A DNA stretch of 59,972 nucleotides, from the NCBI GenBank assembly GCA_018829335.1, contig JAHJUD010000009.1, positions 1 to 59,972 of the forward strand, given 5' to 3'. Under the pieces are notes generated by a model. The model had not been told where the DNA came from and ran no database searches. It saw only the letters and a program-made list of their open reading frames with translations. Position numbers and translations under genes: made by a program. This DNA is from Candidatus Micrarchaeota archaeon. Its GTDB lineage: Archaea > Iainarchaeota > Iainarchaeia > Iainarchaeales > 1-14-0-10-31-34. Shown piece after piece: positions 21,737-59,468 of this stretch (position 1 is the first letter of the stretch; each line of letters begins with the position of its first letter).

Positions 21737-23239
21737 ATGAATCAGAACTCCTTGATTATATTGGCAATCTTCATTGCATGCGTGTTTTCTGTTTACTCAC
21801 TGCATATAAATTACCCTTTGCCTTATCATTCAGAAGAATTTGACCATGAAATCATGGCAAAAGAAACAGCAAAAACAGGGAAAATTACTGCAGGAACAAA
21901 CTGGGAAATAGGCTTTTCAGTATTTTTTGGGATAATAAACTCGCTTTTATTCAATAATTTAATTGATTTTCTGGTTTTTATTCCAATTTTGTTTGCTTTA
22001 ATGATTTCGTTTTCTTCTTTTCTTTTAGGAAGGCATTTATTCAAAAACAATCTGGCAGGAATGCTTTTTGCGCTTTTTGCTTTAATGATTCCAAGCAATC
22101 CAGGCATAATGGGCTTAATGTTTGCTGTACCAAACTCAATGGCTTTAGCATTAACTCCGATGCTTTTATTCTTGTTTTTGAAAGGCACAACACACAAAAA
22201 AAGCGCATTATTGTTCATAATTTTGTTTGCTTTTACTACAATAGTTCATCCTGCGTTTACATTAATACTTATTCCAATTATTGGATTTTACCTGTTAATC
22301 AACCCAAAACTTTTTGAAAGAAACCAGTTCAAAATAGCAGTGGGAATAATTGCATTAATTTTGCTGCTGCCGTTTTTTGCTTCAAGAATTGGATTAGAAC
22401 AAGTGAATTTAACTCATAACACTTTAACTTCAATTTCAAAAAACCTAAGTAAAGTTCTGGTATGGGAATCAATAACACAATCCAATCCAAAATTTTATTT
22501 AACAGACTTTTTAGGCCACTATATTCTGTTTCTTGCAGGAATAGGCTTTGGCTTAATGCTAATGCTAAGGCTTTTAATTGAAGTAAAACGAAGAAAAGGA
22601 AAAACCTCTGAAATGGAAAAAGATTTCATTGTATCAAAACACCAGATAATTCTTCCAATTGCATTAATTATTTTAGGCTTTCTTTACATGCATTTTAACC
22701 TGAAAAATTATACTTTTATTGTACCATATGAAAGAATGTACCTTGAATTAATGCTTTTCTTTTTATTAAATGCTGCTTCAGGAGTGTTTCTTTTATGGAA
22801 AATTCTCTCCAAGAAAACCAGCCAGGAAATGCTTAAGCCTTTATCAATAGGATTTATTGTATTAATTCTTTTCCTGCTTTTAACTGTGCCTTTTTCACAG
22901 CAAAAAGAATTATACAAAAACATTGAAGTAACAGGAATTCCGGCGGTTTCATGGATTCAAGAAAACACAAAAAAAGATTCTTCTTTTATTGCATTGCCAA
23001 AGCATTCTCTTGCAATAAAGGCTTTCACTGAAAGAAAAATTTTTGCTTCACCTTCAACCAGGGCAGGAATTCCAGACGACTATGGAATGGAAAGCTTTTT
23101 TATGAAAAACTGCCCTGAAAAAAAAGAAACAATAGAAAAAACAAAAGCAGAATATATTTTCAGCGAAAAAGAAATTTCCTGTGATTCATTTGAAAAAATA
23201 TATGACAAAAAAGAATACAAAATTTACCTTGTTTCATAA
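21737..23239 (+). CDS. Polytopic membrane protein, GT-C-like glycosyltransferase candidate
   Basis: 500 aa. About 11 helices, an acidic first loop (HSEEFDHE), and a C-terminal soluble domain of about 110 aa. Sits at the end of the glycan cluster. No WWDYG motif was seen, so it is not called AglB. Confidence 0.5.
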   Translation: MNQNSLIILAIFIACVFSVYSLHINYPLPYHSEEFDHEIMAKETAKTGKITAGTNWEIGFSVFFGIINSLLFNNLIDFLVFIPILFALMISFSSFLLGRHLFKNNLAGMLFALFALMIPSNPGIMGLMFAVPNSMALALTPMLLFLFLKGTTHKKSALLFIILFAFTTIVHPAFTLILIPIIGFYLLINPKLFERNQFKIAVGIIALILLLPFFASRIGLEQVNLTHNTLTSISKNLSKVLVWESITQSNPKFYLTDFLGHYILFLAGIGFGLMLMLRLLIEVKRRKGKTSEMEKDFIVSKHQIILPIALIILGFLYMHFNLKNYTFIVPYERMYLELMLFFLLNAASGVFLLWKILSKKTSQEMLKPLSIGFIVLILFLLLTVPFSQQKELYKNIEVTGIPAVSWIQENTKKDSSFIALPKHSLAIKAFTERKIFASPSTRAGIPDDYGMESFFMKNCPEKKETIEKTKAEYIFSEKEISCDSFEKIYDKKEYKIYLVS

Positions 23240-26200
23240 TTTTAAAACAAATTTTTTTTTGCTGCCTTTTTTATTCTTTGTGCTTTTTTCTTTTTCTTCT
23301 TTTTCAAGATTCTCTTTTTTGTTGTTTTCAAATTCATCTCTTTCATTATCCAGCCTGGCTGACTTTTTTTTCTGGATTTTTGACTCAAAGTATTTCTGGA
23401 AAGAATAAACAAAAAACAATTCAAGCGCAATCAAAACAATAAAACCTAAAATTCCAAAAAACTTGTTTGAAAACAATGCCAGGAAAAAGAAAATCACTGC
23501 AATAATAATGCTTAACCCTGTTCCATAATTAGGTTTTACAACAAAAAAGTCAGATAAGTCAAAGCAATGCCTTTTGCATTTAGAGAAAGCATAAGATGAA
23601 GCAATAAAAGCCAAAAGCAGTAAAACAGGAATAAGAAAAGGGTTTGTCTGTTCAGGAGAGCCAAAAAAGAATTCAGCTGCAAGGAAAACAAAAGAATAAG
23701 CTTCTTCTTCCTCTGAAATAACCTTAAAAGAAGTCTTAAATTCAGCTGACTTAACTAAAGCCAGAACCTGATAGGTTCCTAATTCATCTGTAATAAAGCT
23801 TACACTTCCTTCAGGCCCTGTAAAAAAATCAAATGATTTTCCGCTGGGAGAAACAACAGTTATTTTTTCTTCTGTTATTGGCCCAAAAACAGAATGATAA
23901 AGAACAATTTTCTGCAGCTGGCCTAAAACAAGCTTTTCCCGCATTACATCTAAAACAAAATCTTCTTTTACTGTATCCCCTGAAACCAAAACAAAGTTTC
24001 TTGCAGGGCATCCTTCATCTATTGTTCCATCCAAATCATCATCAACTGCATTATAACATTTTTCAACCAAATAAGAATAAAGATTAACTGAAACAATATT
24101 GTTTGATTCATCATCTTCAAAAACTTTTTTTGTTGAATCAAGTTCAGCAAAAACACTGCCGTTAATTTCTTCAGAGAAATCAACTGAAAGCAAAACTTTT
24201 TCTTTTTTTCCGCTTGCAAGAGAAAAACCTGAAACTGAATTAATAACCATTTTCTTGTTTTCTTTGGTGTAATAATACAACTCAAGAGAAAAATCCTCTG
24301 CTTCAAGCAGGCCCTGGTTTTCCATTTCCAGTTCCAAAAGAACCAAATTGCCTAACCTCACTGAAAGGTCATTGACCGGCTTAAAATAATTGACTCTTAA
24401 GTCTGCCTGACTTGAAACAACAAAAAATATTTTCCTGCAGTTTTCAGAGTCAATTTCAGAAGAATTCTCTGAAAAAGAAATGCAGACATCATAACCTTTA
24501 TTGCCTGTCAAGCCTGCAGGAAGAACATAATCATATTCAACTGTAACAGAAGAAAGATCATCAAAATTAAGCTTTGAGTCAGCAAAAAAAACCTGTTTAA
24601 TTCCGGCAAATTCTTTAAGGTTCTGCAATTCTATTCCTGCTTTAAGATTTGAAACCTTAACTGAATCAACTATCTGGTTTGAAAGTGAATCCCTTAAAAC
24701 AACAAAAAAGTCAGATGAATCCACAAAACCATTGTTTTTTATTTTTGCGGTCAGCTTTACTTTAGCTCCAGGGGAAACAATTTCCCTGTCAGCATCAAGC
24801 TCGCTTATTTTCAGGTTAACAGAATCACTGTATTTTAGCAGAATTGATTCTTTTTGGTTGTTTGATTCATCTGATTCAGCAAAAGAATTCTGAAAATCAA
24901 TTAAAGCAATTACTTTGTTTTCAGTCCCAGAAAAAACAGCTGAAGGAATACTAAAAGAAAAAGTTTTTGTTTCTCCTGGTTCAATTGAAGTTATCTTATC
25001 AGAAAAAATAATGTTTTTTTCTTTTGCTTCATTCAAAAAGAAATCAATTCCAACCTGAGGCGAAACAAATTTTCCGTTATTTTTTATTTTAACAACAGCA
25101 TTTGATTCTGTTTCCCCTGCAAGCAGGTTTTCTTCAAAATAAAAATCTTCTAAAACCAAATCAAATCCTTCATCAATTATTCCGTTGTCATTGTCGTCAA
25201 TTCCATTGTCTTCTTCTTTTGAGGCAATCTTTACTGCAAAAGAACTAAAATCATTTGATACATCTGCGTCATTGTCTTTGCCATAACAGTCTGAAGTAAA
25301 AGTCAACTCAAATTCTCCTGAATCAAAACCCAAAAGCTTTGGATTAAAATAAAATCCTGAATCATCTTTTCCTGAAAGCTTTCTTGAATAAAGAGATGAA
25401 AGGTAATTTTCAGGAAGCTTTTTTGCTTTTCCTTCAACAACCCAAAAATAAGAAAAAGAGCTTCCAAAAGAGTCAACGAACTCCAAAAAAGAAAGCTGTT
25501 TTTTTTCAGCTGAATTTCCTGCTTTAGCTGAAAACACCAAAAACAATTCATTGTTTTTCTTTTTGTCTGAAACATACACGCAAAATTCCTTGTCGTTAAA
25601 TTCCTTAAAATAGTCTTTTTCTTCTCCAAAAAGTACCTTAACATCAAAAGGCACAACAAAAAAATCCGGAACCTGGGATAAATCAAACCTGAATTTTTTT
25701 ATTCCTGAAACAGGGTCAGCCAAAGGAAACATTTTTTCCCCTGAAGAAAGAACAATAAAATCCCCTAATTCAACTGAATAATCTGCCTTGCATTCTTCAT
25801 CTATTATTCCATCCAAATCATCATCAATGTTGTTAAAGCATTTTTCAGCCAAAACAGTATTCCCTGAAACCACATTAAAAGAAAAAGTACTTGAATTATT
25901 GCTTTTAGAGGCTTCACCCAAAGAATTAACTTTGTCAATTGACACAGAAAGTTCTGTTTTTCCGCTAAAATCAGAAGAAGAAACAAAAAAAGAAATGGTT
26001 TTTTCTTTTCCTGCATTCAAGCCATAGACAATCCTTGACTCAATTGAATTTCCTTTTCCATCAAGAACTGAAACCAGAAAAGAATCTAAAACATCAGTTA
26101 ATCCGTTGTTTTTTATTTTTACAACCAAAGGAAGCAAATCTCCTTGATTAACTGAATTCAAATGATCAACTGAAACAACAAACAAGTCAGGAAATTCTGA

Positions 26201-26989
26201 AGAAGCATTTAAAACAATTTTTTTCTGGAAACTGTTATTGTTTTCATTTTGTTCTATAACATCAAAACCTGAATCAACGACTGCTTCAAGAATATATTCT
26301 CCTGGAGCAAGAAAAGAAGAGTCAAAAACAAATTCAACTTTATCAGAGGCACCTTCTTTTAATTGCTGCAGTTGTTTTTCGCCAATAAAGGTTTTGCCTG
26401 AAGCAGAATTAAAATACAATGAAACATTAAAAAAAGAAGAATCCTTTAATCCGGAATTTGAAACAAAAACTTTTACGGGAATTTTCTGGCCTACAGAGCT
26501 TTCAGGAAAATCAACTGAAGAAACAGAAAGCTCTGGATTATTTGAATTAATTTTTATTGCGCCGACTTTTGTCTGAAAAACAGCAGACTTTCCTAAAGAA
26601 TCAAACAAAATTACATGCAAAGTATAAGAGCCGTCTTTTGCATCAGAAGAAATCCCGCAGACATCCTCAATTAAATCAGAACCTGAAGTTCTTTTGCAGG
26701 AATTGCCTGAATAAGTGTTTGTTACAGTCCAGCCCATTCCCTTGACTATTCTTGAACAGACATAATCAGACAAGTCATTGTCTTTGTATATATGGATTGC
26801 ATAAGCTGAAGGGCAAGAATATTTGTAATTGAATTCCACTGGAATTTTTTCTCCAGGAGAAAAAACATTATCATAAACAGAAAGAATTCTTAAAGGCGCA
26901 TTAGGGTTTGATTCAGGAACAGAAACTAACGCAAAAGCTGAATTAAATAAAAGCAGAAAACACAAAACCAACAAACCATAAAATTTCAT
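23234..26989 (-). CDS. Giant surface protein with CARDB-like beta-sandwich repeats and Ca-binding-like DDDLDG motifs
   Basis: 1251 aa. Signal peptide MKFYGLLVLCFLLLFNSAFA. At least 5 repeats carry the N(N/S/Q)G...(F)xVxLY signature and end in E(S/Q)(D/N)E(S/N)NN. Also CFNNIDDDLDGIIDEEC, DDNDNGIIDEG and CYNAVDDDLDGTIDEGC. C-terminal TM helices plus a K/E tail. Confidence 0.8.
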   Translation of the reverse strand: MKFYGLLVLCFLLLFNSAFALVSVPESNPNAPLRILSVYDNVFSPGEKIPVEFNYKYSCPSAYAIHIYKDNDLSDYVCSRIVKGMGWTVTNTYSGNSCKRTSGSDLIEDVCGISSDAKDGSYTLHVILFDSLGKSAVFQTKVGAIKINSNNPELSVSSVDFPESSVGQKIPVKVFVSNSGLKDSSFFNVSLYFNSASGKTFIGEKQLQQLKEGASDKVEFVFDSSFLAPGEYILEAVVDSGFDVIEQNENNNSFQKKIVLNASSEFPDLFVVSVDHLNSVNQGDLLPLVVKIKNNGLTDVLDSFLVSVLDGKGNSIESRIVYGLNAGKEKTISFFVSSSDFSGKTELSVSIDKVNSLGEASKSNNSSTFSFNVVSGNTVLAEKCFNNIDDDLDGIIDEECKADYSVELGDFIVLSSGEKMFPLADPVSGIKKFRFDLSQVPDFFVVPFDVKVLFGEEKDYFKEFNDKEFCVYVSDKKKNNELFLVFSAKAGNSAEKKQLSFLEFVDSFGSSFSYFWVVEGKAKKLPENYLSSLYSRKLSGKDDSGFYFNPKLLGFDSGEFELTFTSDCYGKDNDADVSNDFSSFAVKIASKEEDNGIDDNDNGIIDEGFDLVLEDFYFEENLLAGETESNAVVKIKNNGKFVSPQVGIDFFLNEAKEKNIIFSDKITSIEPGETKTFSFSIPSAVFSGTENKVIALIDFQNSFAESDESNNQKESILLKYSDSVNLKISELDADREIVSPGAKVKLTAKIKNNGFVDSSDFFVVLRDSLSNQIVDSVKVSNLKAGIELQNLKEFAGIKQVFFADSKLNFDDLSSVTVEYDYVLPAGLTGNKGYDVCISFSENSSEIDSENCRKIFFVVSSQADLRVNYFKPVNDLSVRLGNLVLLELEMENQGLLEAEDFSLELYYYTKENKKMVINSVSGFSLASGKKEKVLLSVDFSEEINGSVFAELDSTKKVFEDDESNNIVSVNLYSYLVEKCYNAVDDDLDGTIDEGCPARNFVLVSGDTVKEDFVLDVMREKLVLGQLQKIVLYHSVFGPITEEKITVVSPSGKSFDFFTGPEGSVSFITDELGTYQVLALVKSAEFKTSFKVISEEEEAYSFVFLAAEFFFGSPEQTNPFLIPVLLLLAFIASSYAFSKCKRHCFDLSDFFVVKPNYGTGLSIIIAVIFFFLALFSNKFFGILGFIVLIALELFFVYSFQKYFESKIQKKKSARLDNERDEFENNKKENLEKEEKEKSTKNKKGSKKKFVLKL

Positions 26990-44106: not shown

Positions 44107-46629
44107 TCAAATTCCTGCTTCTTTTTTCAAAACTTCAGCTTTATCAGTTTTTTCCCAGGTAAAATCTGGATCATCTCTTCCAAAATGCCCGTAAGCTGCA
44201 GTCTTCTTATAAATCGGCCTCTTCAAATTAAGGTGCTTTAAGATTCCAGCAGGCTTTAAAGGAAAAATTTTCCTGACCAATTCACAGATTTTTTCCTCTG
44301 AAATTTTCCCTGAACCAAAAGTATCAACATGCAGGGAAACAGGATCAGGATGGCCAATAGCATAAGCTAGTTGTATTTCACATTTATCTGCAAGACCTGA
44401 AGCAACAATATTTTTTGCAATATATCTTGCCATATAAGCAGCGCTCCTGTCAACTTTGCTTGGGTCTTTACCTGAATTATGACAAACAAAACCGTTGGCA
44501 GTAAAAGTGTGGCTTTTTGGGACAAGCAAATCATATACATGAGTTAAAGAGTTTTCTATTTCTTCAACCCCAGAGTAATAATGATTCATTTTGCATAAAA
44601 GTTCCAGTTCCTTAAACTCTTTTTCTTCTCCCAACTTATTTCTGTAGATTTCTAAAAATTCTCTTAATTTTTGACAAGTTAACTCTTTTGTTGTTTTTCC
44701 TTTTTTGCTTCTTGTGAATCTTCCGATTTTTGCTTTATCTAACTGATGATCCTCTAATGAAAGCTTTTGCCACAAACTTTTGATTCTCTTTTGTTGGCGG
44801 GGTACAACAAAAAGATTTCTTTTTTCTTTTAACTTCAGGTTGTCTAAAATTTTTTGCTTTCTTGGCAGTCCAAAACCTATTTCTTCCTTAAAAATTCTGA
44901 CACTTTCAGCGCCTTTAATTCTTAATGCGTAAATAATTCTTCTTGTAGTTGCCTCTCTGTCTTTGATTCTGAACACGGTTCCTATTTTATCAGTTTTTTG
45001 TATTCTTGAAATTATGCCAAAACTCAAAAGCAGTTGTTGAATTTGCTGAATCAAAGTGTAAGATGATGAAACCAATTTAATATCAGGAAAATTTTTATTT
45101 CTTCCATGAATTCGTATCCCTCCATCAGTGTCAAATAAACCTCTAATAAATGCTGCTACAACTTTCTTTGGTGCCTTAAATATTTTTTCTGGAACACTTT
45201 TCTCCCAAGATCTCCTGTAATCAAGTCCAATATGTTTCAGATAAGCTCTTAACTCAACTCCTGCAACATAAGCCCAATGCCCAAAAATCTTCCATTTGTT
45301 TCCAAAAAGTTTTTTATACAAATTCCCTAAATTTTCCTTTTGTTCTTTTTCACAAACACAAATGGCTATTGCGCCTTCCATCATACAATTACCATCGCCT
45401 ATAAGTGACCCAAGCAGATAAGCATAATCTTCTGTCAGTTCTTTTGGAAAGGAAAACTTATTTTTCCTTGCTTCGGCAGTGCTCTCTTTATAGGTATAAG
45501 TAAAATCACTCAAATCAACTCTTTCTCCAAACAGCCTATTGCTTTTGTGAATAGCCACAGAATCTCCTTTCTTAAGCTGATCCATTCTTTTCCAAATATA
45601 ATTTCCATTATTGTCAATAACCCTGACAGCCTGATTATTTGAGCCCTCCAAAGAATAACCATCTTCTGACCTAACAACAAGAGTTTCCATTACGCCATTG
45701 TCATACCATTCTTTTGCAGGTTCAGGATGAACATCTGTTTTAACTAGCAAGTGGTTATCCACGGTTTCTTTCATTTCTTTAATTAGCTCTAGGCCTTTGG
45801 CAGTATTAACCAAAGAGTTTCCTTCAACACAAAAAGCGCCTCCTCCATGCCTGCCTATTCCTCCATAAGTGTCAACAATAATTTTTCTTCCTGTTAAGCC
45901 TGCATCAGCATAAGGGCCTCCTCGAACAAAAGCTCCTGTTGGATTAACAAAAAATTTTGTTTCAGAGTCAATCCATTCTTTGCAGACAGGCTTAATTATT
46001 TTTTCAATTATTTTTTGCTGTAATTCCTTATAAGGAATGTTTTCATCATGCTGGGTTGAAACAACAACTGCATCAACCCTTAAAGGCTTTCCATTCTTGT
46101 CGTATTCAACTGTAACCTGGCTTTTACCGTCAGGCCTTAAAAAAGTTAATTCATTGCTTTTCCTTACTTCAGCTAATTTCATGCATAATTTATGTGCAAG
46201 ACTAATAGTCAAAGGCATTAACTCTGGAGTTTCATTGCAGGCAAAACCAAACATCATTCCCTGGTCGCCGGCACCCTGCTCTTTTGTCTGGCTTGTGGTT
46301 TCATTTACGCCTAAAGCAATGTCAGGGCTTTGCTCGGTAATCTGGGTCCACACAGAACAGGTTTCATACTCTATTCCGTATTCAGATTTAGTGTAACCTA
46401 TTTCTTTTATTGTTTCTCTTACCACAGAAGGAATATCAACATAAGCTTTAGTTGTAATCTCGCCAAAAACATTTACTCCGCCGTTTTTGGCTGAAGTTTC
46501 ACAGGCAACCCTTGCATCAGGATCCTGCTCAAGAATTGCATCAAGAATTGCATCAGAGATTTTATCAGACATCTTGTCAGGGTGCCCTTCAGTAACAGAC
46601 TCAGAAGTCAATAAAATTTTTTCAGCCAT
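44107..46629 (-). CDS. metK: S-adenosylmethionine synthetase (bacterial/eukaryotic MetK type) precursor containing an intein
   Basis: ATG at 46629 ([19 protein letters not shown]). [15 protein letters not shown], and GGGAF|intein|[14 protein letters not shown]. The exteins sum to 388 aa. The 112-aa upstream extension of the track ORF is rejected. Confidence 0.9.
44476..45831 (-). mobile_element. Intein (452 aa) with LAGLIDADG homing-endonuclease domain
   Basis: Starts with Cys (tgt at 45829-45831; CVEGNSLV). LAGLIDADG motifs [11 protein letters not shown] and [11 protein letters not shown]. Ends [21 protein letters not shown] (aat at 44476-44478), followed by Ser+1. Confidence 0.9.
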
Positions 46630-46735
46630 AAAAATTCCCCCATAAAGAAACAATAAAAATAATGAAAGAAGAATACATTTAAAAGAATAATTTAGAATAA
46701 AATTATTCAAATAAGAATAAAGAGAAGTGATTGCC

Positions 46736-47293
46736 ATGCTTCCGGACTTAAGCGAGATAAAAATAAAAAGAAAAGAGCTGAATTTAACACAAGAAGAACT
46801 TTCAGAATTAAGCAAAGTCCCGCAGTCAATTATAGCAAAAATTGAAAACCATAAAATTTCCCCTTCATATGAAAGCGCAAAAAAAATTTTTGATGTTTTA
46901 GGCAAAGAAAACAAAAAAAAGCAGACTGCAAGAAATGTGATGAGCAAAAACCTTATTTCAATCAAAGAAAACGAAAAAGCAGAAAAAGCAATTTATCTGA
47001 TGAACAGGCATGGAATAAGCCAGCTGCCTGTAATGAAAAAAGACATTCCAATCGGCACAATAACAGAAAAAACCCTTGTAGAAAAAATCAGTTCAGGTAA
47101 AGTAAGGAGTTCAGACAAGGCTTCAGACTTAATGCAGGAAAGCCTGCCAATAATTGAATCAAACTCTGAAATTGAAGCAGTTTCTGCCATGCTGAAATAT
47201 TATTCTGCTGTATTAGTAAAAGAAAAAGACAAAATAATCGGAATAATTACAAGAACAGATGTAATCAGGAAATCCATTAACAGGAAAAACTGA
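46736..47293 (+). CDS. Transcriptional regulator: XRE-type HTH fused to a CBS-domain pair
   Basis: ATG at 46736 (the track start at 46727 is GTG). [23 protein letters not shown] is the HTH. It is followed by two CBS-like repeats ([17 protein letters not shown]; [15 protein letters not shown]). Confidence 0.8.
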
Positions 47294-51385: not shown

Positions 51386-53884
51386 ATGAACAAAAAGATT
51401 CTGGTTGCATTAAGTTTGATTATACTGGGCGTTATGGTTAATGCTCACACTCTAGAAGGAAATTTTGAAGGATTAACCTTTCAAGGAGAAACAGTTGAAA
51501 GTGTTTTTTATCTCTGCAATTCAAGTTCTTCAGGAGAAAACTTTAATATTTCAGATAACAGCATTTGGATGGAAATAAGGCCTTTAAGCGTTTATATTAA
51601 TGCAGACTCCTGCGAAGAAATTTATGCTTTTACAACCCCTTTTCCTTATGCTGAATCAGGAAAACATGAAATAGAAGTTACAGCAAAAGGCGAAACAGAT
51701 TCTGTTTCAAGAACTTTTTATTTAACTGTAGTCGAAGGACACAAGATTTCAATTAATTCAAACCAGAATTCAATTAATTCAACCCAATGCAATCAGGAAA
51801 CTTTTGAAATAGAATTAAAGAACACAGGAATATTTGACGAAAGAGCTTTAATTTCAGTTCAAGGAATAAACCCTAACTGGATTTCTTTGAGTTCAGAAGA
51901 AATCCTTCTGCCAAAAAATTCAAGCAGGAACTTTGAATTAGATGTTTTGATTCCATGCAATGAAGAAACAAAAAACTATGAATTCACTTTATTTGTGGAA
52001 TTAAAGAACACAGGAATCATAAAAGAAAAAACTCTTGCAGTTAATGTCAAAGAAGGCCAAGGAATAGGCATTGAATCAAAGGAATTTAATGCATGCAATG
52101 ACCTGAAAACAGAAGAAAAATTAATGATAGAAAATTCAGGGATTCTTTCAGACAACATTAAAGTTGAATTAGAAGGATTAAACTGGATTACATTAAAAGA
52201 AAACAGTTTTAGCTTGAATCCAGGCCAGACAAAAGAATTAGAACTTGAATTCAACGGAAAAGACCTAGAAAAAGGAAACTATAATTTTACATTAAAAATT
52301 TACTCTGAAAAATTCAATAACTTTTATTCAAAAGATTTCAGCGTAAAATTAGAGGACTGCTTTAATCTTGAAGTAACTAAAGGCCAGTTCCAGGATTCAG
52401 CCTGCATTGAATCAACACCGGAAATTTCATTTATAATCAAAAACACCGGCACAAGAAAAGCAAATGTAAAAGCGGGAATTGAAGGAATTAATGCAGTTTT
52501 AGAAAAAAATTCAATTGGATTAAATCCAAATGAAAGCACTGAAATAAAAGCAAAACTTAATTTAAGTGAAGAACAAGAAGGAAAAATAAATTTTATTTTC
52601 CTTGCAGACTCAGAAAATTATTCGGCAAGCCTTGAAAACTCAATTGAAATACAAAACTGTTATGAAACAGAAGCAATAGTTCCTTCAATTGAAGTATGCA
52701 ATGAAGTTCCATTAACAGGAAAATTCATTGTAATAAAAAATACTGGAACAAAAAAACAGTCTTTTGAGGTTTCATCTGACGTAGACTGGATTAAATTAGA
52801 AGAAACAAACTTTGAATTAGAAGGAAACCAAGAGAAAACAATCGGCTTAATAATCACTCCAGGAAAAGATTCAAGAGAAGAAAACTATTCAATTAAAACA
52901 AAAACAGAAAACAACCAATACCAGCTAAAAGCAAGCATAACTTACCCAAACCAGCAAACCTGCTTTGGAATAAGCATGACAAATTTACAGTCAACAGTTG
53001 ATGTCAACGCAGGAGAAGGCTCAATTACAACAATCAAAATAACAAACAATGGAAGAACAATACAGCACTTGGAGTTTTCAGTTGACAACTATTACTGGGT
53101 TTACTTTAACCCAAAAGAATTCGATTTAATGGAAAACGAGACAAAAGAAGTTTATGTTTACTTTAATCCTCCATTTGACTTCAAAGAAGAAACAGTCAAA
53201 GTAAAGATTAAAGGAACAACAAACTTTGGATTTAAAACAGAACAAGAAGTTCAGGTAAACATTTCAGGCGGAAGCGTTGTTTTAACAATTAATCCAGAAG
53301 ACATTAAAGTTAATTCAACAAATCTGAACACAGAAGACACAAACCAGAATACAGTTGAAATAAAAATAGAGATAGCAAACAACACTGAAACAAACATGAA
53401 AATCTTGGACATAAAATCAAATTACCCTAACTCAAAATACTTTATTGAAGACCCAATAATAAAAAAAGGCACTGCATCAGAAGCAAGATTAAGTTTTACT
53501 GCAAGTACTGAACTAAATTTGTCAGGATTAGAAGTGCCAATAGAAATAATCACAGACAAAGGAACATATTACAAGGTTGTAACCCTGCCTGAAAAAGAAT
53601 CAATGCAAGAAGAAAAAGAAAATGAAGCAGGGGAAGGAACAGGCTTTGTATTGTTCGGCGGAGACGAATACATTTTAGTAATCCTGATAGTTATTGTAGT
53701 TATTTTAATAATTATGGCTGCAATAAGAACAGGAAAAGAAGAAAAACAAGAAGAAATTGTTGACTATTCAGAAGAAAAAAACTTTCAAGACGAAATCAAA
53801 GAAATAGTAACAAAGCCTGCAAAAACAGAAAAACCAATCAAATCAAAAACTACAAAAAAGAAATCAAAGAAAAAAAAGAAATAA
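51386..53884 (+). CDS. Secreted, C-terminally anchored protein with about 7 NEW3/CARDB-like repeats
   Basis: 832 aa. Signal peptide. Repeats include ELKNTGIFDERALISVQGINPNWISL, IKNTGTRKANVKAGIEG, IKNTGTKKQSFEVSSDVDWIKL and ITNNGRTIQHLEFSV. C-terminal GTGFVLFGG plus a TM and a K/E tail. Confidence 0.75.
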   Translation: MNKKILVALSLIILGVMVNAHTLEGNFEGLTFQGETVESVFYLCNSSSSGENFNISDNSIWMEIRPLSVYINADSCEEIYAFTTPFPYAESGKHEIEVTAKGETDSVSRTFYLTVVEGHKISINSNQNSINSTQCNQETFEIELKNTGIFDERALISVQGINPNWISLSSEEILLPKNSSRNFELDVLIPCNEETKNYEFTLFVELKNTGIIKEKTLAVNVKEGQGIGIESKEFNACNDLKTEEKLMIENSGILSDNIKVELEGLNWITLKENSFSLNPGQTKELELEFNGKDLEKGNYNFTLKIYSEKFNNFYSKDFSVKLEDCFNLEVTKGQFQDSACIESTPEISFIIKNTGTRKANVKAGIEGINAVLEKNSIGLNPNESTEIKAKLNLSEEQEGKINFIFLADSENYSASLENSIEIQNCYETEAIVPSIEVCNEVPLTGKFIVIKNTGTKKQSFEVSSDVDWIKLEETNFELEGNQEKTIGLIITPGKDSREENYSIKTKTENNQYQLKASITYPNQQTCFGISMTNLQSTVDVNAGEGSITTIKITNNGRTIQHLEFSVDNYYWVYFNPKEFDLMENETKEVYVYFNPPFDFKEETVKVKIKGTTNFGFKTEQEVQVNISGGSVVLTINPEDIKVNSTNLNTEDTNQNTVEIKIEIANNTETNMKILDIKSNYPNSKYFIEDPIIKKGTASEARLSFTASTELNLSGLEVPIEIITDKGTYYKVVTLPEKESMQEEKENEAGEGTGFVLFGGDEYILVILIVIVVILIIMAAIRTGKEEKQEEIVDYSEEKNFQDEIKEIVTKPAKTEKPIKSKTTKKKSKKKKK

Positions 53885-54055: not shown

Positions 54056-54844
54056 TTATTCAATTTCACTTAAATAATTTGCAATAAAAGGGCTTTCAAT
54101 CAATAAAGCTTTCTCGTTTTCATCTTTTTTTTCATTCAAAAAAAGCAGTACTTTTTCTTTGTCAAACAATATAAACCTTGCATTAGTTTTTGATTTAACT
54201 GCATTAAAAGCCTTTAATTCCCTTGAAAAACTGTTATTTGAACTATTTAAAGCAAATTTAATTTGAACTCCTCTGGCCTTTAAAGCCTTTAATTTTGAAT
54301 TAAAGAAGCCTATTTTCTTTAAGGCATTGGCTTCAGAAGTAGAAATTATAACGCTTGCCTTTGCATTTTTTAACGACAAGGCTATTATGTTGTTTATCTG
54401 GCTTGATGAAACAATACTCCACACCCCAGAAAAGCTTTCTTTTGAAGGCTTTTCATTAAAGTTTTTTTTGAGGTCTTCTTTAAGGGATTTCATTTCCTCT
54501 AATTCTAATTCAAATAATTCCCTTTTTTGCCTTTCAAAATTCATTAAAGCTGTTTCTGGCTCTATTGCCTTAAAAGAAACAGGCCTTCCCAAAGAAACCA
54601 TTACAAAACCTTTTTTTTCCAAAGACATTAAAACATCATAAACTCTTGCCCTTGGAATGCCTGCTTTCCTGCTTACATCTGATGCAGTCAAAGTCTTATT
54701 TGAACTCAAAGAAGAATACACTTTTGATTCATATTCATTTAATCCAATTCTCTTCAATAAAGCAGTCAAGTCATCCAAAGAATTCACCAAAAAAAAATGA
54801 TTAGATGAATAATGCTGTTTTCCTTTAAATTCTTTTCTGTTCAA
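54056..54844 (-). CDS. TrmB-family transcriptional regulator
   Basis: LKRIGLNEYESKVYSSLSSNKTLTASDVSRKAGIPRARVYDVLMSLEKKGFV is the TrmB wHTH, plus a C-terminal domain. The only in-frame start is the TTG at 54844, 4 nt after the upstream stop. Confidence 0.75.
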   Translation of the reverse strand: MNRKEFKGKQHYSSNHFFLVNSLDDLTALLKRIGLNEYESKVYSSLSSNKTLTASDVSRKAGIPRARVYDVLMSLEKKGFVMVSLGRPVSFKAIEPETALMNFERQKRELFELELEEMKSLKEDLKKNFNEKPSKESFSGVWSIVSSSQINNIIALSLKNAKASVIISTSEANALKKIGFFNSKLKALKARGVQIKFALNSSNNSFSRELKAFNAVKSKTNARFILFDKEKVLLFLNEKKDENEKALLIESPFIANYLSEIE

Positions 54845-54848
54845 AAGC

Positions 54849-57800
54849 TTACTCTGTTTTAGCTATTCCTGAAACAAACTTGTAGTCAACACAAGCAAGG
54901 CATTCAACAATAGTATTGCATGTACTGCATGCAGCCGGAGTTTCAATTGGGGGAACTACTCCAGTTGAAACAATTTTTGTCGGCTTGCAGTAATCTTTTC
55001 CTAATTCTGCTTTTTTTCCATAGTTTTCTGCAAACACCCTATACCATGCAATAACTTTTGGCACATAAGTTTCTCTTGTTGTAGAACAGCCTATTGAATC
55101 ACATGAAACCTGCGAACAATTATATCTTGCAATCTTTAATGCAGTCTTCCATGTTGCCTGTACTTCACCTGAACCACTTAAAACCGTACTAAGGCTTTCC
55201 TGGCTGCATGAAAGATTATTAACCCATTTTTCAAGAGAACCCAAAAAATTACCTGAATTAAAATATCTTGTTCCAGCCTGAATATTTTTATTTACATCCT
55301 TCCATGTTTCTGTTGTACTCCATCCTGAACCAAAAATATCAGTCCAAGCAGTAAGATTTGATTCATGAATCTGCATTAAGCCATAAGAGCTTTTTTCTCC
55401 AGAACTATCCTTGCCTATTGCATTAGCCTTAAAAGAGCTTTCAGCCTGAATTATTGCTCGCGTAAGGTTTGGATCCATTGAAAAAATTTCAGAATATTTT
55501 TCAATTTCTGCCTCAAATTTTTCTGCATTATCCATTGCAATAATGCAGTCCTGGCTTGGCGGCTGATCGCTAATCCTTACAGTTGTAGTTTGCTGTCCTT
55601 GTGATTCAGGGGTAAGAGTAATAGTTACTTCTATTTCCCGGCCTTCAATTATTAAAGTTCCGCCGCTTCCCTGCTGGGGTGCTGCATTAAAATTTCCTTG
55701 GGGAGTTTCAAGACTGAAGTTATTTAAGTAAACGTTTCCTTCATCGCATTCAAGGGTTCCTTCCCCTGAAGGAGTGCAGGTTATACCTTGTCCTTCAAGC
55801 TGTCCTTCTATTTCATTTAATGATTCTTGAATAAATTCATCAAGGTAAAGAACTGGTTCAGGCAGATTCAAATTTAATTTAACCACTGCTTTTTTTGATT
55901 CAGACTTAATTGTAATTGATGCAGCCTCATAATTTGGTTCAATAAAAGTTGCGCCATGCTTTTCTGTTCCATTAACATAATATAAATCGCATTTGTTGTC
56001 TGCATCCTTGTCCTGGCAGGCATAAAATTCTAATGAAGTTTCATCCCAGTTATTTAAGACAATTTTTTGTCCTGAATAAGAGTCAATAGAAAAATATTTT
56101 CCGTTCTTGAATTGTGCTGTGAAAGCATCAAATTCTACAATAGAATTTGAAACACTTGCCGAAGGGTAATCTGATGAATTGTTTGCTGTTGTTGAAGGCT
56201 GTTTTACTTTTCCTTTTTCTCCTACAGCAAAAAACATTTTTTCATTACTGTAATCCTGTAATTCTATTTCAATTTGTTTTGTGCCTTTTGCAAGATAAAC
56301 AATATGAGGCACTTTGTTTTCAAGGCAGACAAAATTGTTTTTGTTGTTTGGAGTGCAGGTTAAACCATTCACTGACTTAACCTGAAGGTTAGTTAAGTTT
56401 CCTGCAGGCTGTGCAGTTAATTTAACTGTTGCAGGCGCTGTTTTTGAAACCTGAATTAATTTTTTGTCTGGAATAATCAAAAAACCTGGTGTGCCTGCAA
56501 GAGGAATAAAAATTGTACCGTCAGCTATCTGATAAGAGCCTTCAGGACAGGAAATCTGTTCTTTTGCCGGTTCTGTTACCTTGCAAGAAGAAGACAAACT
56601 TGACTTTAATTCATCTATTATCTGCTGGTTTAATTCTTGTTTTTGTGCCTGAGTTAAAGGATAATTTCCTAAATCAATTTGCAATTGAATTATTCCTGAC
56701 TCAACAGAAATTGAAGCCAGTGAAACAGCCTGCTGTGCTTTTCCTGCTATTGGCCCTGAAATCAAAGCAGACTTAGTATTGGCAAAAGAATATCCTGTTA
56801 AATCAAGTTCAGTCATTGAATCAGTTATAGGCTGTCCTGAAGAAGGAATTCTTACTGCTTCCTTATAATAATTAAAAGAGCGTGTGTTATCTGATTCTTC
56901 AACAACAAAATTATATTCTGTGCCTTTAGACAATAATATAATAAGCCTGTCTTTTGTTAATGAATCAGGAGAGAATAAATATGCTTTGTTTATATACCAT
57001 CTTTCATCCTTGTGACTAGAATCCAAAGAATAAACATAAACTCCTTGCCAGTTATTTTTTTCCAGCAAAGCATAATTGTCTTTTCCAATGATTATACTGA
57101 GTTTAAAATCTTCTTCTGGAACAGGACAGGAAGAAACATCTGGGTTTATAATAGTAACTGAATCAGGAATAATTGCAGAAAACACGTCTGGTGCAGTCTG
57201 AGTTAAAGGAATTAGTTTTTGATTAGTTGTACAACTGTCAGGAACACTAATTCCAAGTTTTCCTTTATATTCTTCAGCAGTTCCATAAATTTTCAAAGTT
57301 GCAGTAGCTAAATTTGTTTCAATGTTACTAACCCAATTGTTGAATAATCCTTTGCCTGTATGGCCCAGTATTCCAACATAATCTGGTTCTTCTCCTGAAG
57401 AATCCTTTAATTCAGGTGCAATTCCTCCCTGATTTAATGCATCAACCACTGCATGAGATGACTGAACCTGAACAACAAATGTATCAGGATTAACAGCAAT
57501 CTGGTTAATTAAATCAACTACAGTGTTTCCGTTAACTGAAACTGTAGTGGAATCAATTATTTGCCCTGAAGTTGAATCAGTTACATTCAAAACATATTCT
57601 CCTGTAGGAACTGAATCAGCATAAGCAACTGCAGTGGTTCCTGCAGGAGCAAGATTCAACTGAATGCTGTCGCCTGAAGAAGGCTTCAAAGAAAAATCAA
57701 ATTTGTCAGCTAAAGAAGGCTGAGTGAATACGCTGTCAACATAAGCTTTTACATTAAATTCTTCTGGTTTAGGAGCAAGCTGAAGAAAATTGTTTTGTGT

Positions 57801-59468
57801 TTTGATTTCTTTTAATGCACTAAGTTTTCCTTCATTCAAAGAAAAAGACACAGAAAATTCATCGGTTCCAATTCCATATGAATCCTTGATTTCAGTTATA
57901 TCAGAATTAACTACCCCTAATTTTTCATGCAAAAAAATAAATCCCTGAACAGACTGACTGAAATCATTTGGCTTTGGCAAAAGCATTGTTTCAGGAACAA
58001 GTTCTTGATATCCATACATAGTATCTAAATAAAAGTAAATTGGAAGCCCTTCAAGCTTATGCACGCCATTTAATCCTTTCTTCATTTTAGAAACAACATA
58101 TTTTCCTGAAGAATCTTTTACTGCTTCAGGAAGCTGGCTTTCTTCAATTAAATTTATTTTAATTGAAGCAGTTTTTGCGGCAGAATCCAGAGAAACGAAA
58201 ACAGTTTTAAAATAGGTTCCACCAAAATTATTTGTTTCGCATATACGCTTTTGCATTAATCCAAAAGAAACTTCCATATTTTTGCAGTTATCAAATTGAA
58301 CAAATGATTTAAGCCCTTCAATTGTTGCAAAAGAAGGAATAAATCCATATGAAATAACAACTTCATTTTGACTTATGTCTTCAATTGCAATCCAGTAAGG
58401 AGAATACTCGTTTTGGTTTGCAATAATCCTGTAAGCTTTTCCTGCAGAAACATTATTTAACACAGTCATGTTTTCTATTGTATCAAAATAATATTGTTCT
58501 GAAGAATTTGACTGAGAAGAAACCTGGCTTAAAGCAGAACCAGCATTCCAGGATAAAATTGAAGGAAGCGCTGAAGCAGCATAAGCTGAATCAGGTTCAG
58601 CCAAGCCTGTGTTTGGGTCAACAATCCATTGGGTTGAATCATCTACTACATTAGATTCTCTAGGTAATTCTTCAATCAAGCCTGCATATAATAAAAAAAA
58701 GTGGTCTGGCAACATCAAAAAAATTTTATATCCTACGTCAACAACATATTTTCTATCCATTTTTGGAATTACAGCGGCATCCGCGCTTTCTGGAAGAAAA
58801 CTTAATTTAACATCTATAGCTATATCATTTTCTGGCTCAAATTGTGGAAAAACCCAAATAGGATAACCTTCAAGCTTGTATACAATGTTTTGATTCTCTG
58901 AATAATCAATCCAACCATAGCCTTTCTCGCTTTGGTTATATGAAACTTCATCAAAAGTTAAACCCAAATCAGGAAAACCATTATCAGCGTATTTTATTCT
59001 TATTTCAACACAAGAAGGACCCGCAGAACAATTCGCAGCATCGGCTACCTCAATTAATTTAACTTTAAATTGATTTCCGTAAAAGTCTTTTGAATTTGGT
59101 GTTGTAGATTGACCAGAAGGAAGAACAGTAGTGTAACGTCTTGAGAATTCAAGCTCATATTCTTCATAAGAATCATTACAAATTGTCTTATTATTTGCAG
59201 TTTCACAATATGCAATAGACTCCAATAAAGGCAATTCACCTATTGAAAATTTGGCGGTCTTATTTGCAGCATCTATTTCTGAAATATAAATCCAGAAAGG
59301 AGAAAACTCGTTTTCGTTTTTGATAATTCTTAAAGCTAAACCTGCTTCAGTATTTATAACAGTTTCTTCTGCAACAGGATCCCAATAAACATTAAAACCA
59401 TTTGCAGAAACACTTAAAGAAAACAAAACCAAAAAAACTAATAACAAAACAATTTTTTTCATTAACAT
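54849..59468 (-). CDS. Giant secreted protein (1539 aa) with duplicated N-terminal module and a C-terminal lytic transglycosylase (SLT) domain plus Cys-rich tail
   Basis: Signal peptide MKKIVLLLVFLVLFSLSVSA. Tandem module with RII.N.NE(F/Y)SP(F/Y)WI. SLT motifs AIIQAESSF, YGLMQI, NIQAGTRYF and ARYNCS near the C-terminus. Confidence 0.8.
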   Translation of the reverse strand: MLMKKIVLLLVFLVLFSLSVSANGFNVYWDPVAEETVINTEAGLALRIIKNENEFSPFWIYISEIDAANKTAKFSIGELPLLESIAYCETANNKTICNDSYEEYELEFSRRYTTVLPSGQSTTPNSKDFYGNQFKVKLIEVADAANCSAGPSCVEIRIKYADNGFPDLGLTFDEVSYNQSEKGYGWIDYSENQNIVYKLEGYPIWVFPQFEPENDIAIDVKLSFLPESADAAVIPKMDRKYVVDVGYKIFLMLPDHFFLLYAGLIEELPRESNVVDDSTQWIVDPNTGLAEPDSAYAASALPSILSWNAGSALSQVSSQSNSSEQYYFDTIENMTVLNNVSAGKAYRIIANQNEYSPYWIAIEDISQNEVVISYGFIPSFATIEGLKSFVQFDNCKNMEVSFGLMQKRICETNNFGGTYFKTVFVSLDSAAKTASIKINLIEESQLPEAVKDSSGKYVVSKMKKGLNGVHKLEGLPIYFYLDTMYGYQELVPETMLLPKPNDFSQSVQGFIFLHEKLGVVNSDITEIKDSYGIGTDEFSVSFSLNEGKLSALKEIKTQNNFLQLAPKPEEFNVKAYVDSVFTQPSLADKFDFSLKPSSGDSIQLNLAPAGTTAVAYADSVPTGEYVLNVTDSTSGQIIDSTTVSVNGNTVVDLINQIAVNPDTFVVQVQSSHAVVDALNQGGIAPELKDSSGEEPDYVGILGHTGKGLFNNWVSNIETNLATATLKIYGTAEEYKGKLGISVPDSCTTNQKLIPLTQTAPDVFSAIIPDSVTIINPDVSSCPVPEEDFKLSIIIGKDNYALLEKNNWQGVYVYSLDSSHKDERWYINKAYLFSPDSLTKDRLIILLSKGTEYNFVVEESDNTRSFNYYKEAVRIPSSGQPITDSMTELDLTGYSFANTKSALISGPIAGKAQQAVSLASISVESGIIQLQIDLGNYPLTQAQKQELNQQIIDELKSSLSSSCKVTEPAKEQISCPEGSYQIADGTIFIPLAGTPGFLIIPDKKLIQVSKTAPATVKLTAQPAGNLTNLQVKSVNGLTCTPNNKNNFVCLENKVPHIVYLAKGTKQIEIELQDYSNEKMFFAVGEKGKVKQPSTTANNSSDYPSASVSNSIVEFDAFTAQFKNGKYFSIDSYSGQKIVLNNWDETSLEFYACQDKDADNKCDLYYVNGTEKHGATFIEPNYEAASITIKSESKKAVVKLNLNLPEPVLYLDEFIQESLNEIEGQLEGQGITCTPSGEGTLECDEGNVYLNNFSLETPQGNFNAAPQQGSGGTLIIEGREIEVTITLTPESQGQQTTTVRISDQPPSQDCIIAMDNAEKFEAEIEKYSEIFSMDPNLTRAIIQAESSFKANAIGKDSSGEKSSYGLMQIHESNLTAWTDIFGSGWSTTETWKDVNKNIQAGTRYFNSGNFLGSLEKWVNNLSCSQESLSTVLSGSGEVQATWKTALKIARYNCSQVSCDSIGCSTTRETYVPKVIAWYRVFAENYGKKAELGKDYCKPTKIVSTGVVPPIETPAACSTCNTIVECLACVDYKFVSGIAKTE
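55032..55475 (-). other. SLT / goose-lysozyme-like lytic transglycosylase domain (aa 1332-1479 of the giant protein)
   Basis: DPNLTRAIIQAESSFKANAIGKDSSGEKSSYGLMQIHESN...NKNIQAGTRYF...ARYNCS...YVPKVIAWYRVF. The catalytic Glu-Ser and GLMQ motifs are in canonical order and spacing. Confidence 0.75.

Follow-up and report, generated by a model that had tools for sequence, protein, structure and literature searches.

We examined a 59,972-nucleotide stretch of DNA from a Candidatus Micrarchaeota archaeon (contig JAHJUD010000009.1, positions 1 to 59,972; hereafter the window) and found that its metK gene, coding for a bacterial-type S-adenosylmethionine (SAM) synthetase, carries 452 additional codons, in frame, between Phe266 and Ser267. 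Judged from its sequence and modelled fold, the insert is very probably a class-1 intein with a LAGLIDADG homing endonuclease. Such an intein had been proposed in an earlier reading of the letters alone (the sequence-only reading), and our analysis bears this out; that reading had not noted the cross-domain family to which the intein belongs, its His-type sister clade, the two further MetK insertion sites, or the identity of the interrupted motif as the P-loop of the enzyme. It had also remarked that MetK is not among the classical intein hosts, which is in line with the literature searched, where we found no paper describing a MetK intein; the main text of Novikova et al. (2016; PMC4760082) is without MetK, and its supplements might list one. 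The MetK-intein family, its use of MetK and of this site within it, its Gln variant of block B and its wide distribution across domains all appear to be undescribed in that literature.

An insert in the phosphate-binding loop of MetK

The open reading frame (ORF) runs on the minus strand from ATG at 46629 to TGA at 44107-44109 and encodes 840 amino acids. A TTG at 46965 was rejected as the start codon, as it would overlap a divergent gene encoding helix-turn-helix (HTH) and CBS domains and as the intein-less orthologues (388 amino acids) begin at the equivalent of 46629. The insert comprises codons 267-718 (nt 45831-44476), starts with CVEGNSLV, ends with ..ANGFVCHN and is followed by Ser719. 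Removing these 452 codons in silico gives a 388-residue MetK with the predicted junction peptide GGGAFSGKDPSK. The boundaries 44476 and 45831, after ..GRHGGGAF at residue 266, had been given in the sequence-only reading and proved right to the base, and the two LAGLIDADG motifs are also where it had placed them. The features of the locus are as follows.

44107..46629, minus strand: metK precursor coding sequence, 840 aa plus TGA; bacterial-type SAM synthetase split by one intein (TIGR01034; Pfam S-AdoMet_synt_N, _M and _C)
45832..46629, minus strand: N-extein, MetK aa 1-266, ending ..GRHGGGAF with Phe as the -1 residue; aligns with residues 1-266 of the intein-less L001-L004
44476..45831, minus strand: the probable class-1 intein, 452 aa, Cys1 to His451-Asn452 (PF14890, PF14528, TIGR01443, AlphaFold2, Foldseek); absent from syntenic alleles
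45793..45831, minus strand: block A; the Cys1 codon, TGT at 45829-45831, would supply the nucleophile of step 1
45631..45642, minus strand: block B turn, Ser64-Asn-Asn-Gln67, equivalent of Thr(B:7)-x-x-His(B:10); Gln codon CAG
44872..45459, minus strand: nested LAGLIDADG endonuclease domain, approximately intein aa 125-320 (PF14528 over aa 224-319; phmmer alignment to TliVMA and PI-PfuI)
45388-45420, minus strand: LAGLIDADG motif 1, with Asp146
45118-45150, minus strand: LAGLIDADG motif 2, with Asp236
44584..44871, minus strand: basic region of intein aa 321-416, linking the endonuclease core to the C-terminal splicing strands and helical in the AlphaFold2 model
44476..44547, minus strand: blocks F and G, with Asp434 (F:4), His441 (the block-F His), His451 (penultimate) and Asn452, which would cyclise in step 3 (TIGR01443 and alignments)
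44107..44475, minus strand: C-extein, mature MetK aa 267-388 plus stop; Ser+1 codon TCA at 44473-44475; PF02773 over precursor aa 718-827

The MetK model TIGR01034 matched the precursor in two pieces (E 2e-168, 560 bits against a cut-off of 309), and the domains PF00438, PF02772 and PF02773 were found together with the motifs GHPDK, GAGDQG and GGGAFSGKD. Residues 4-388 of the spliced product aligned with E. coli MetK 1fug (E 2e-153), further solved SAM synthetases were matched too, and the alignment to the best structure match, 7r3b, was gapless across the splice junction, so that the joined exteins are contiguous with known MetK structures, as they are codon for codon with syntenic alleles free of the intein (see below). 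In E. coli numbering, the break falls between Phe262 and Ser263, two residues ahead of Lys265. The sequence-only reading had placed it inside a conserved catalytic motif; GGGAFSGKD is in fact the P-loop of MetK (PMC2148060). Inteins cluster in P-loops, as set out in the main text of Novikova et al. (2016), and the placement GGGAF/SGKD (a slash marks the splice junction or insertion point) fits this pattern.

Profiles for splicing and endonuclease domains, of the kinds that the sequence-only reading had suggested running, matched above their curated cut-offs: LAGLIDADG_3 (PF14528; E 1e-17, 64.6 bits against 22.5), Intein_splicing (PF14890; 40 bits against 35.8) and intein_Cterm (TIGR01443; 26.4 bits against 15.6). 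In a search against the sequences of solved structures, the endonuclease domain matched the TliVMA intein and PI-PfuI, and the splicing domain matched Mxe GyrA and Mtu RecA. An AlphaFold2 model of the intein built with 29 homologues reached a predicted local distance difference test (pLDDT) score of 90.7 and a predicted template modelling score of 0.91. Its best Foldseek matches in the PDB were endonuclease-bearing inteins (7qss, which is TliVMA, at E 3e-23 and a template modelling (TM) score of 0.67; then 1dq3, 7qst, 2cw7 and 1vde), followed by free LAGLIDADG enzymes (I-DmoI) and then by mini-inteins. Profiles, model and structural matches thus agree on a Hint-fold splicing domain with a nested two-motif LAGLIDADG endonuclease.

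Comparing 40 genome copies, we found an intein of 448-456 amino acids without frameshift, in which Cys1 is invariant (TGT in the window, with TGT and TGC both in use), Asp at F:4, the terminal His-Asn and Ser+1 are present in all, and the block-F His is present in all but three bacterial copies (L009-L011). The window intein ends in His-Asn followed by Ser+1 (..FVCHN/S), and this Ser is kept in every MetK copy with an intein at this position, which we call site a. In family alignments Asp434, His441, His451 and Asn452 are invariant or nearly so. Other assignments were rejected on the same residues: class 2 by the residue-1 nucleophile Cys1; class 3 by Asp434 at F:4 and the lack of a block-F Cys; and a bacterial intein-like domain by Cys1, Asp at F:4, and His-Asn with Ser+1.

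Distribution, empty sites and the endonuclease

A protein search with the intein alone returned 26 MetK proteins with a homologous intein (76-37% identity), all sharing the site GGG[ACS][FY]/C...HN/SGKD. Among GTDB genomes, taken as one per species, at least 43 loci have a MetK intein at the same codon, and it is also found in proteins P0001-P0024, P0034 and P0037. Archaeal hosts within DPANN are Iainarchaeum, Aenigmatarchaeota, Woesearchaeota, Micrarchaeota, Nanoarchaeota and Diapherotrites; beyond DPANN there are one Heimdallarchaeota bin and one Nitrososphaerales bin. Bacterial hosts are Saccharibacteria, Parcubacteria and other Patescibacteria (the candidate phyla radiation, CPR), Omnitrophota, and Thiomargarita. 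Binning noise does not explain the hosts of this second group, because their flanks encode LptF/LptG, SecF, sigma-70 region 4 and an ATP-synthase alpha/beta-family subunit, and because the exteins of the Thiomargarita copy (L042) and of P0021 are 76-77% identical to E. coli MetK. These two, P0021 at 77%, are gammaproteobacterial MetK proteins with a clade-I intein (clades are defined below). An exhaustive search of representatives added little: almost every one of the 7121 relatives it returned was another multi-intein protein. In public records the intein-bearing MetK proteins are named only methionine adenosyltransferase or 'domain-containing protein', or stand as fragments, and none of the intein-aware 'exception' models of NCBIfam (GyrA, RtcB, Tes) matched MetK.

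The two MetK proteins closest to that of the window (84% identity) are intein-less and 388 amino acids long. They lie on contigs L001 (94 kb) and L002, in the gene order of the window: TrmB, an 830-aa Ig-like protein, proteins of 600 and 267 aa, HTH-CBS, metK and a 385-aa protein, which in the window and L001 is followed by a class-V aminotransferase (Aminotran_5). Without nt 44476-45831, the window metK aligned with both codon for codon and without gaps (80-81% nucleotide identity), showing that the insertion is precise and that near relatives carry intein-less alleles. The junction in the alignment of the window and the intein-less alleles reads ..GGA GGN GCT TTT / TCN GGN AAA GA.., and the site in L002 is CATGGAGGAGGAGCTTTT/TCTGGAAAAGATCCAAG. 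Alleles with and without the insert therefore both exist, as the sequence-only reading allowed: 43 genome loci with it, and, without it, all of the 120 nearest MetK proteins listed (84-72% identity). The Ser+1 codon is TCN in all 40 intein-bearing alleles compared (window 44473-44475), and its equivalent in intein-less alleles is AGT in L001 (6799-6801) and TCT in L002-L004. An AGY Ser codon might protect an allele from being cut by the endonuclease.

Could the junctions at 44476 and 45831 be artefacts of assembly or binning? We consider the chance negligible: the insertion is in frame and codon-precise with canonical intein ends, different studies have yielded more than 60 independent assemblies with the same architecture at the same codon, and the syntenic empty sites are precise. 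Foreign base composition was rejected as well, GC content at third codon positions (GC3) being 0.265 in the intein and 0.276 in the exteins, within the range of the window's long ORFs.

The closest relative of the intein (L005, 73% identity) resides in a MetK that is only 61% identical to that of the window. In neighbour-joining trees inteins and exteins were discordant, with bacterial inteins nested in both intein clades. This discordance and the scattered occurrence are the signature of a mobile element that, as read from its sequences, is spreading horizontally, and the lack of the intein in the closest MetK alleles points the same way.

In the window copy the endonuclease has both of its motifs, with Asp146 and Asp236, and Foldseek aligned it to I-DmoI and I-Tsp061I (target TM 0.64-0.70). 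G145-D146-G147 and D234-T-D236-G237 are invariant in a nine-sequence alignment (A2), and both LAGLIDADG aspartates are kept in nearly all 40 genome copies. We lean towards an active enzyme in the window copy. In a different history, the intein would still splice but its endonuclease would have gone silent; late in the homing cycle, it would persist in this lineage as a passenger that is fixed and passed on vertically. This is unlikely, though some points favour it: codon composition matches the host gene, the nearest intein relatives are only 71-76% identical so that no recent transfer is visible, and decay does occur in the family, as in the proteobacterial P0021 (394 aa, its motifs degraded to YLLGVLTGDP and FLRGLFASAG). 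Such decay is what the homing cycle predicts. Against a passenger, the window copy has motifs and catalytic residues intact, the 200-residue domain and its helical extension are full length across 40 species, and gain-and-loss cycles fit the intein-less state of the closest host alleles better than fixation does.

Between the endonuclease core and the last splicing strands, the model places helices at intein residues 323-330, 347-355, 359-364, 370-373, 386-400 and 404-415. This region is conserved in MetK inteins and in the nearest P-loop inteins, its match to DUF1456 is weak, and it is probably an extra DNA-contacting module. Two sets of cysteines also stand out. Cys450 (G:5; 44482-44484), beside the terminal His-Asn, is found in almost all MetK inteins, with Asn or Ser in its place in the nearest RecA, RuvB and PhoH inteins; and Cys149, Cys158 and Cys160 of the endonuclease domain (45385-45387, 45358-45360 and 45352-45354) are invariant in the nine-sequence alignment. 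A redox or metal-binding role is possible for these cysteines.

Gln in place of the block-B His

Of the canonical class-1 sequence features examined, the window intein lacks one, the His of Thr-x-x-His in block B. To place the equivalent residues we used Mxe GyrA and Ssp DnaB (both TANH), the sister MetK inteins (TxNH) and the nearest non-MetK inteins as alignment partners. The window sequence E-G-S-N-N-Q-A-V aligned column for column with T-G-T-A-N-H-P-L, making Ser64 B:7 and Gln67 B:10, and the model puts SNNQ in a turn between strands 60-64 and 68-72, with a mean pLDDT of 97 for residues 61-70. The sequence-only reading had singled out SNNQ, at insert residues 64-67, as an atypical block B, and this placement is upheld.

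MetK inteins fall into two clades, which differ at this very position. Clade I has TxNH in block B and T-Y-D in block F; clade II, to which the window intein belongs, has [ST]xNQ and V-[YF]-D. Gln at B:10 is invariant in 22 species-level genome copies, about half of the family, 12 of which spell it CAA and 10 CAG; the use of both codons indicates that it is held by selection. Within clade II, the bacterial L009, L010 and L011 have His at B:10 but Asn where block F otherwise has its His (..ANTF or ..SNTF against the usual ..SHTF), the reverse of their Gln-type neighbours in the tree.

His(B:10) has been called the most conserved intein residue, and in 2014 only two exceptions were known: one was a pseudogene, and in the other, Tko CDC21-1, Lys58 makes up for the loss (Mills, Johnson and Perler 2014, PMC4031507). 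The residue is nevertheless not strictly defining, as active exceptions have been published. In the family alignment we saw no clear counterpart of Lys58: some 23 residues beyond B:10, where one would be expected, the window intein has Asp90, and the adjacent Lys87 and Lys88 are unconserved in the clade. The Gln and His clades differ at 20 positions, A:3, Gly/Ala at B:6 and Val/Thr in block F among them, and none of these is an obvious catalytic substitute. The -1 residue is Phe or Tyr in every MetK site-a intein, as part of the host motif, and together with the precedent of a DnaB intein mutant (Friedel et al. 2018, PMC6333167) this makes extein-assisted activation a reasonable idea.

A Walker-A intein with Gln at B:10 also occurs in about 24 DPANN genes for MCM helicases (L056, L058-L083; e.g. 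residues 324-707 of the L070 ORF). These read GDPG/C...NGIVCHN/SGKSQ, have T[YF]NQP in block B when aligned to TANH of Ssp DnaB, and share with the MetK inteins the register (x/SGK) and Ser+1, with Gly at -1. They were rejected as orthologues of CDC21-1, since the Pab and Pho CDC21-1 inteins insert after the P-loop Lys (SAK/C..N/T) and not at G/SGKS.

The sequence of events we propose is as follows. With its P-loop split by the intein, the 840-residue precursor would be inactive as a SAM synthetase. Splicing would begin with a thioester at Cys1, which Ser+1 would attack; Asn452, assisted by His451 and His441, would next cyclise, and after the O-to-N shift a normal 388-residue MetK and a free 52-kDa intein would remain. 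In the absence of the block-B His, step 1 would rely on Ser64 (B:7) and Asp434 (F:4), and perhaps on strain caused by Phe(-1), a bulky and invariant residue of the host motif. The freed intein, through Asp146 and Asp236, would cut intein-less metK at the sequence coding for HGGGAF/SGKDPSK, and repair would copy the intein in. Homing of this kind into empty metK alleles would account for the scattered, cross-lineage and cross-domain distribution. We put forward only as a tentative proposal the fullest version, in which a whole clade with Gln(B:10) splices with extein assistance through Phe/Tyr(-1) strain, as a natural equivalent of the engineered Gly(-1)Phe/His73Ala DnaB intein; the element has passed between DPANN archaea and CPR, Omnitrophota and gammaproteobacterial hosts; and MetK, with its three insertion sites, is an overlooked hotspot for inteins that marks gene flow between domains in ultra-small microbes.

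Several points weigh against the main reading, that of a splicing and homing class-1 intein. Splicing, endonuclease activity and target site are predicted here from sequence and a structural model. The profile for the intein N-terminus, TIGR01445, scored 11.7, below its cut-off of 24.5, which hints at an atypical N-terminal half, and Gln at B:10 could make splicing slow or conditional. The DPANN MCM inteins combine Gln at B:10 with Gly at -1, so strain from Phe(-1) is not a general solution. The trees of inteins and exteins are neighbour-joining trees without support values. Lastly, the window copy is no recent arrival, given that its GC3 matches that of the host gene, and its endonuclease could have lost function without visible loss of the motifs.

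Slow first-step chemistry could also be of use to the host, with the intein serving as a post-translational switch of SAM synthetase that responds to redox state, temperature or substrate. The insert lies in a catalytic P-loop, where the precursor must be inactive; step 1 should be weaker once the B:10 His is gone (PMC4031507); almost all MetK inteins have Cys450, which the closest inteins of RecA, RuvB and PhoH lack, and Cys149, Cys158 and Cys160 are invariant; and regulatory retention of P-loop inteins is argued for in the main text of Novikova et al. (PMC4760082). However, the sister clade has His at the same site within the same exteins and close relatives live without the intein, so no host need is apparent, and we regard a switch as rather improbable.

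More improbable still is that the intein is splicing-dead for want of the block-B His, and metK a pseudogene, with SAM coming from another gene or from a host organism. DPANN organisms are often host-dependent, and a second SAM synthetase could lie beyond the visible 60 kb. One of the two inteins known in 2014 without His(B:10) was, as said, a pseudogene. But the ORF is intact over 840 codons, the MetK catalytic motifs and the remaining splicing residues are all conserved, and Gln persists in 22 species-level genomes across synonymous changes and 50-76% sequence divergence without a stop or frameshift. Such preservation is not expected of a dead element.

If the MetK insert is a splicing-competent, mobile class-1 intein, as we favour, the list of intein hosts gains a central metabolic enzyme that is the only route to the main methyl donor, and one more phosphate-binding-loop site strengthens the rule that inteins reside in nucleotide-binding motifs. 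Its main value lies in the natural pair of sister clades with His and Gln in an identical extein context, in which the activation of the first acyl shift and the role of the -1 residue become testable by a one-residue swap; to a specialist this is useful rather than startling. The distribution over DPANN, CPR and other bacteria offers a compact marker of gene exchange between co-occurring lineages, and annotation pipelines would gain from an intein-aware MetK model.

Further MetK sites, gene context and known inteins

MetK has at least two further intein sites besides site a. Site b, in the GLTGRK region (..DTGL/C...VVHN/), was found in a Patescibacteria gene (L008:844-4731) that also has a site-a intein; site c, GAGDQG/C...VHN/S[VM]FG, was found in two archaeal metagenome-assembled genomes (L013 and L027). 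The inserts at both score as Intein_splicing and LAGLIDADG_3. With the three families only 24-30% identical to one another, and all three sites in conserved active-site motifs, they represent independent invasions. A metagenome MetK with a site-a intein (P0004) has the ATP motif GSGDQG-S-MAGY, with Ser at the position of the site-c +1 Ser; an intein once present at site c may have left this trace, or the allele may be open to receiving one.

The window has low GC (32%) and reads as a cellular genome with many ORFs without a Pfam match. Besides a TrmB regulator it encodes Ig-like surface proteins, a CARDB protein of 1251 aa and a protein of 1539 aa that carries an SLT lytic transglycosylase domain (context loci 155-1846, 23234-26989, 51386-53884, 54056-54844 and 54849-59468). 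The TrmB and CARDB genes are of archaeal type; the SAM synthetase is bacterial-type and not archaeal-type, its nearest named matches being from Aenigmarchaeota, Woesearchaeota and 'archaeon'. Judged by these neighbours and matches, the genome resembles that of a DPANN-type archaeon. Divergent from metK and 97 bp away lies the gene with HTH_3 and a CBS pair (46727-47293, plus strand), a pairing kept in L001 and L002. CBS domains often bind adenosyl ligands, so this protein may control metK in response to SAM or ATP. A phmmer search of the intein against all window ORFs of at least 100 aa found only itself, and no SAM riboswitch, other Rfam RNA or tRNA was found in the 60-kb window.

Among inteins of known structure, TliVMA, PhoVMA, PI-PfuI, PI-PkoII and PI-SceI resemble that of the window in having a Hint domain that is split, in the customary position, by a two-motif LAGLIDADG endonuclease (Foldseek E 3e-23 to 6e-11). 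The TliVMA/PI-PfuI/PI-SceI group also shares Cys1, the penultimate His, the terminal Asn, a +1 nucleophile and a location in a conserved nucleotide-binding site of an essential enzyme. Identity to this group is only 11-21%, however, and its hosts are V-ATPase, ribonucleotide reductase and polymerase instead of MetK; the window intein further differs in Gln for the block-B His, Ser for Thr at B:7, and an additional set of helices, about 95 residues long, that follows the endonuclease core.

The nearest relatives in sequence are the P-loop inteins of RecA/RadA, RuvB, PhoH and other GxxGxGK/T ATPases (P0025-P0036). They are 27-32% identical to the window intein over its full 452 residues, endonuclease and helical extension included, and they too occupy a phosphate-binding loop. 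Unlike it, they are placed directly behind the Lys of a genuine Walker A motif (GK/C..HN/T) and have Thr+1, His at B:10 and no G:5 Cys, and their host proteins are unrelated to MetK.

With regard to block B, the closest natural parallel is Tko CDC21-1 with its orthologues, class-1 inteins of a P-loop that lack His(B:10) and are active (PMC4031507, PMC6333167, PMC6801210). The -1 residue is bulky in both cases, Leu in Tko CDC21-1 and Phe or Tyr in MetK inteins. The host of CDC21-1 is MCM, however, its site follows the P-loop Lys, and its compensating Lys58 lies about 23 residues past B:10, where the window intein has Asp90. The closest artificial parallel, the Ssp DnaB M86 intein with Gly(-1)Phe and His73Ala, is a laboratory-made mini-intein with Ala and not Gln at B:10. 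Like the clade-II MetK inteins it combines Phe(-1) with a lost block-B His, and in it the N-S acyl shift and splicing persist (Friedel et al. 2018, PMC6333167), suggesting by analogy that strain at the splice junction could likewise assist the first step in MetK inteins.

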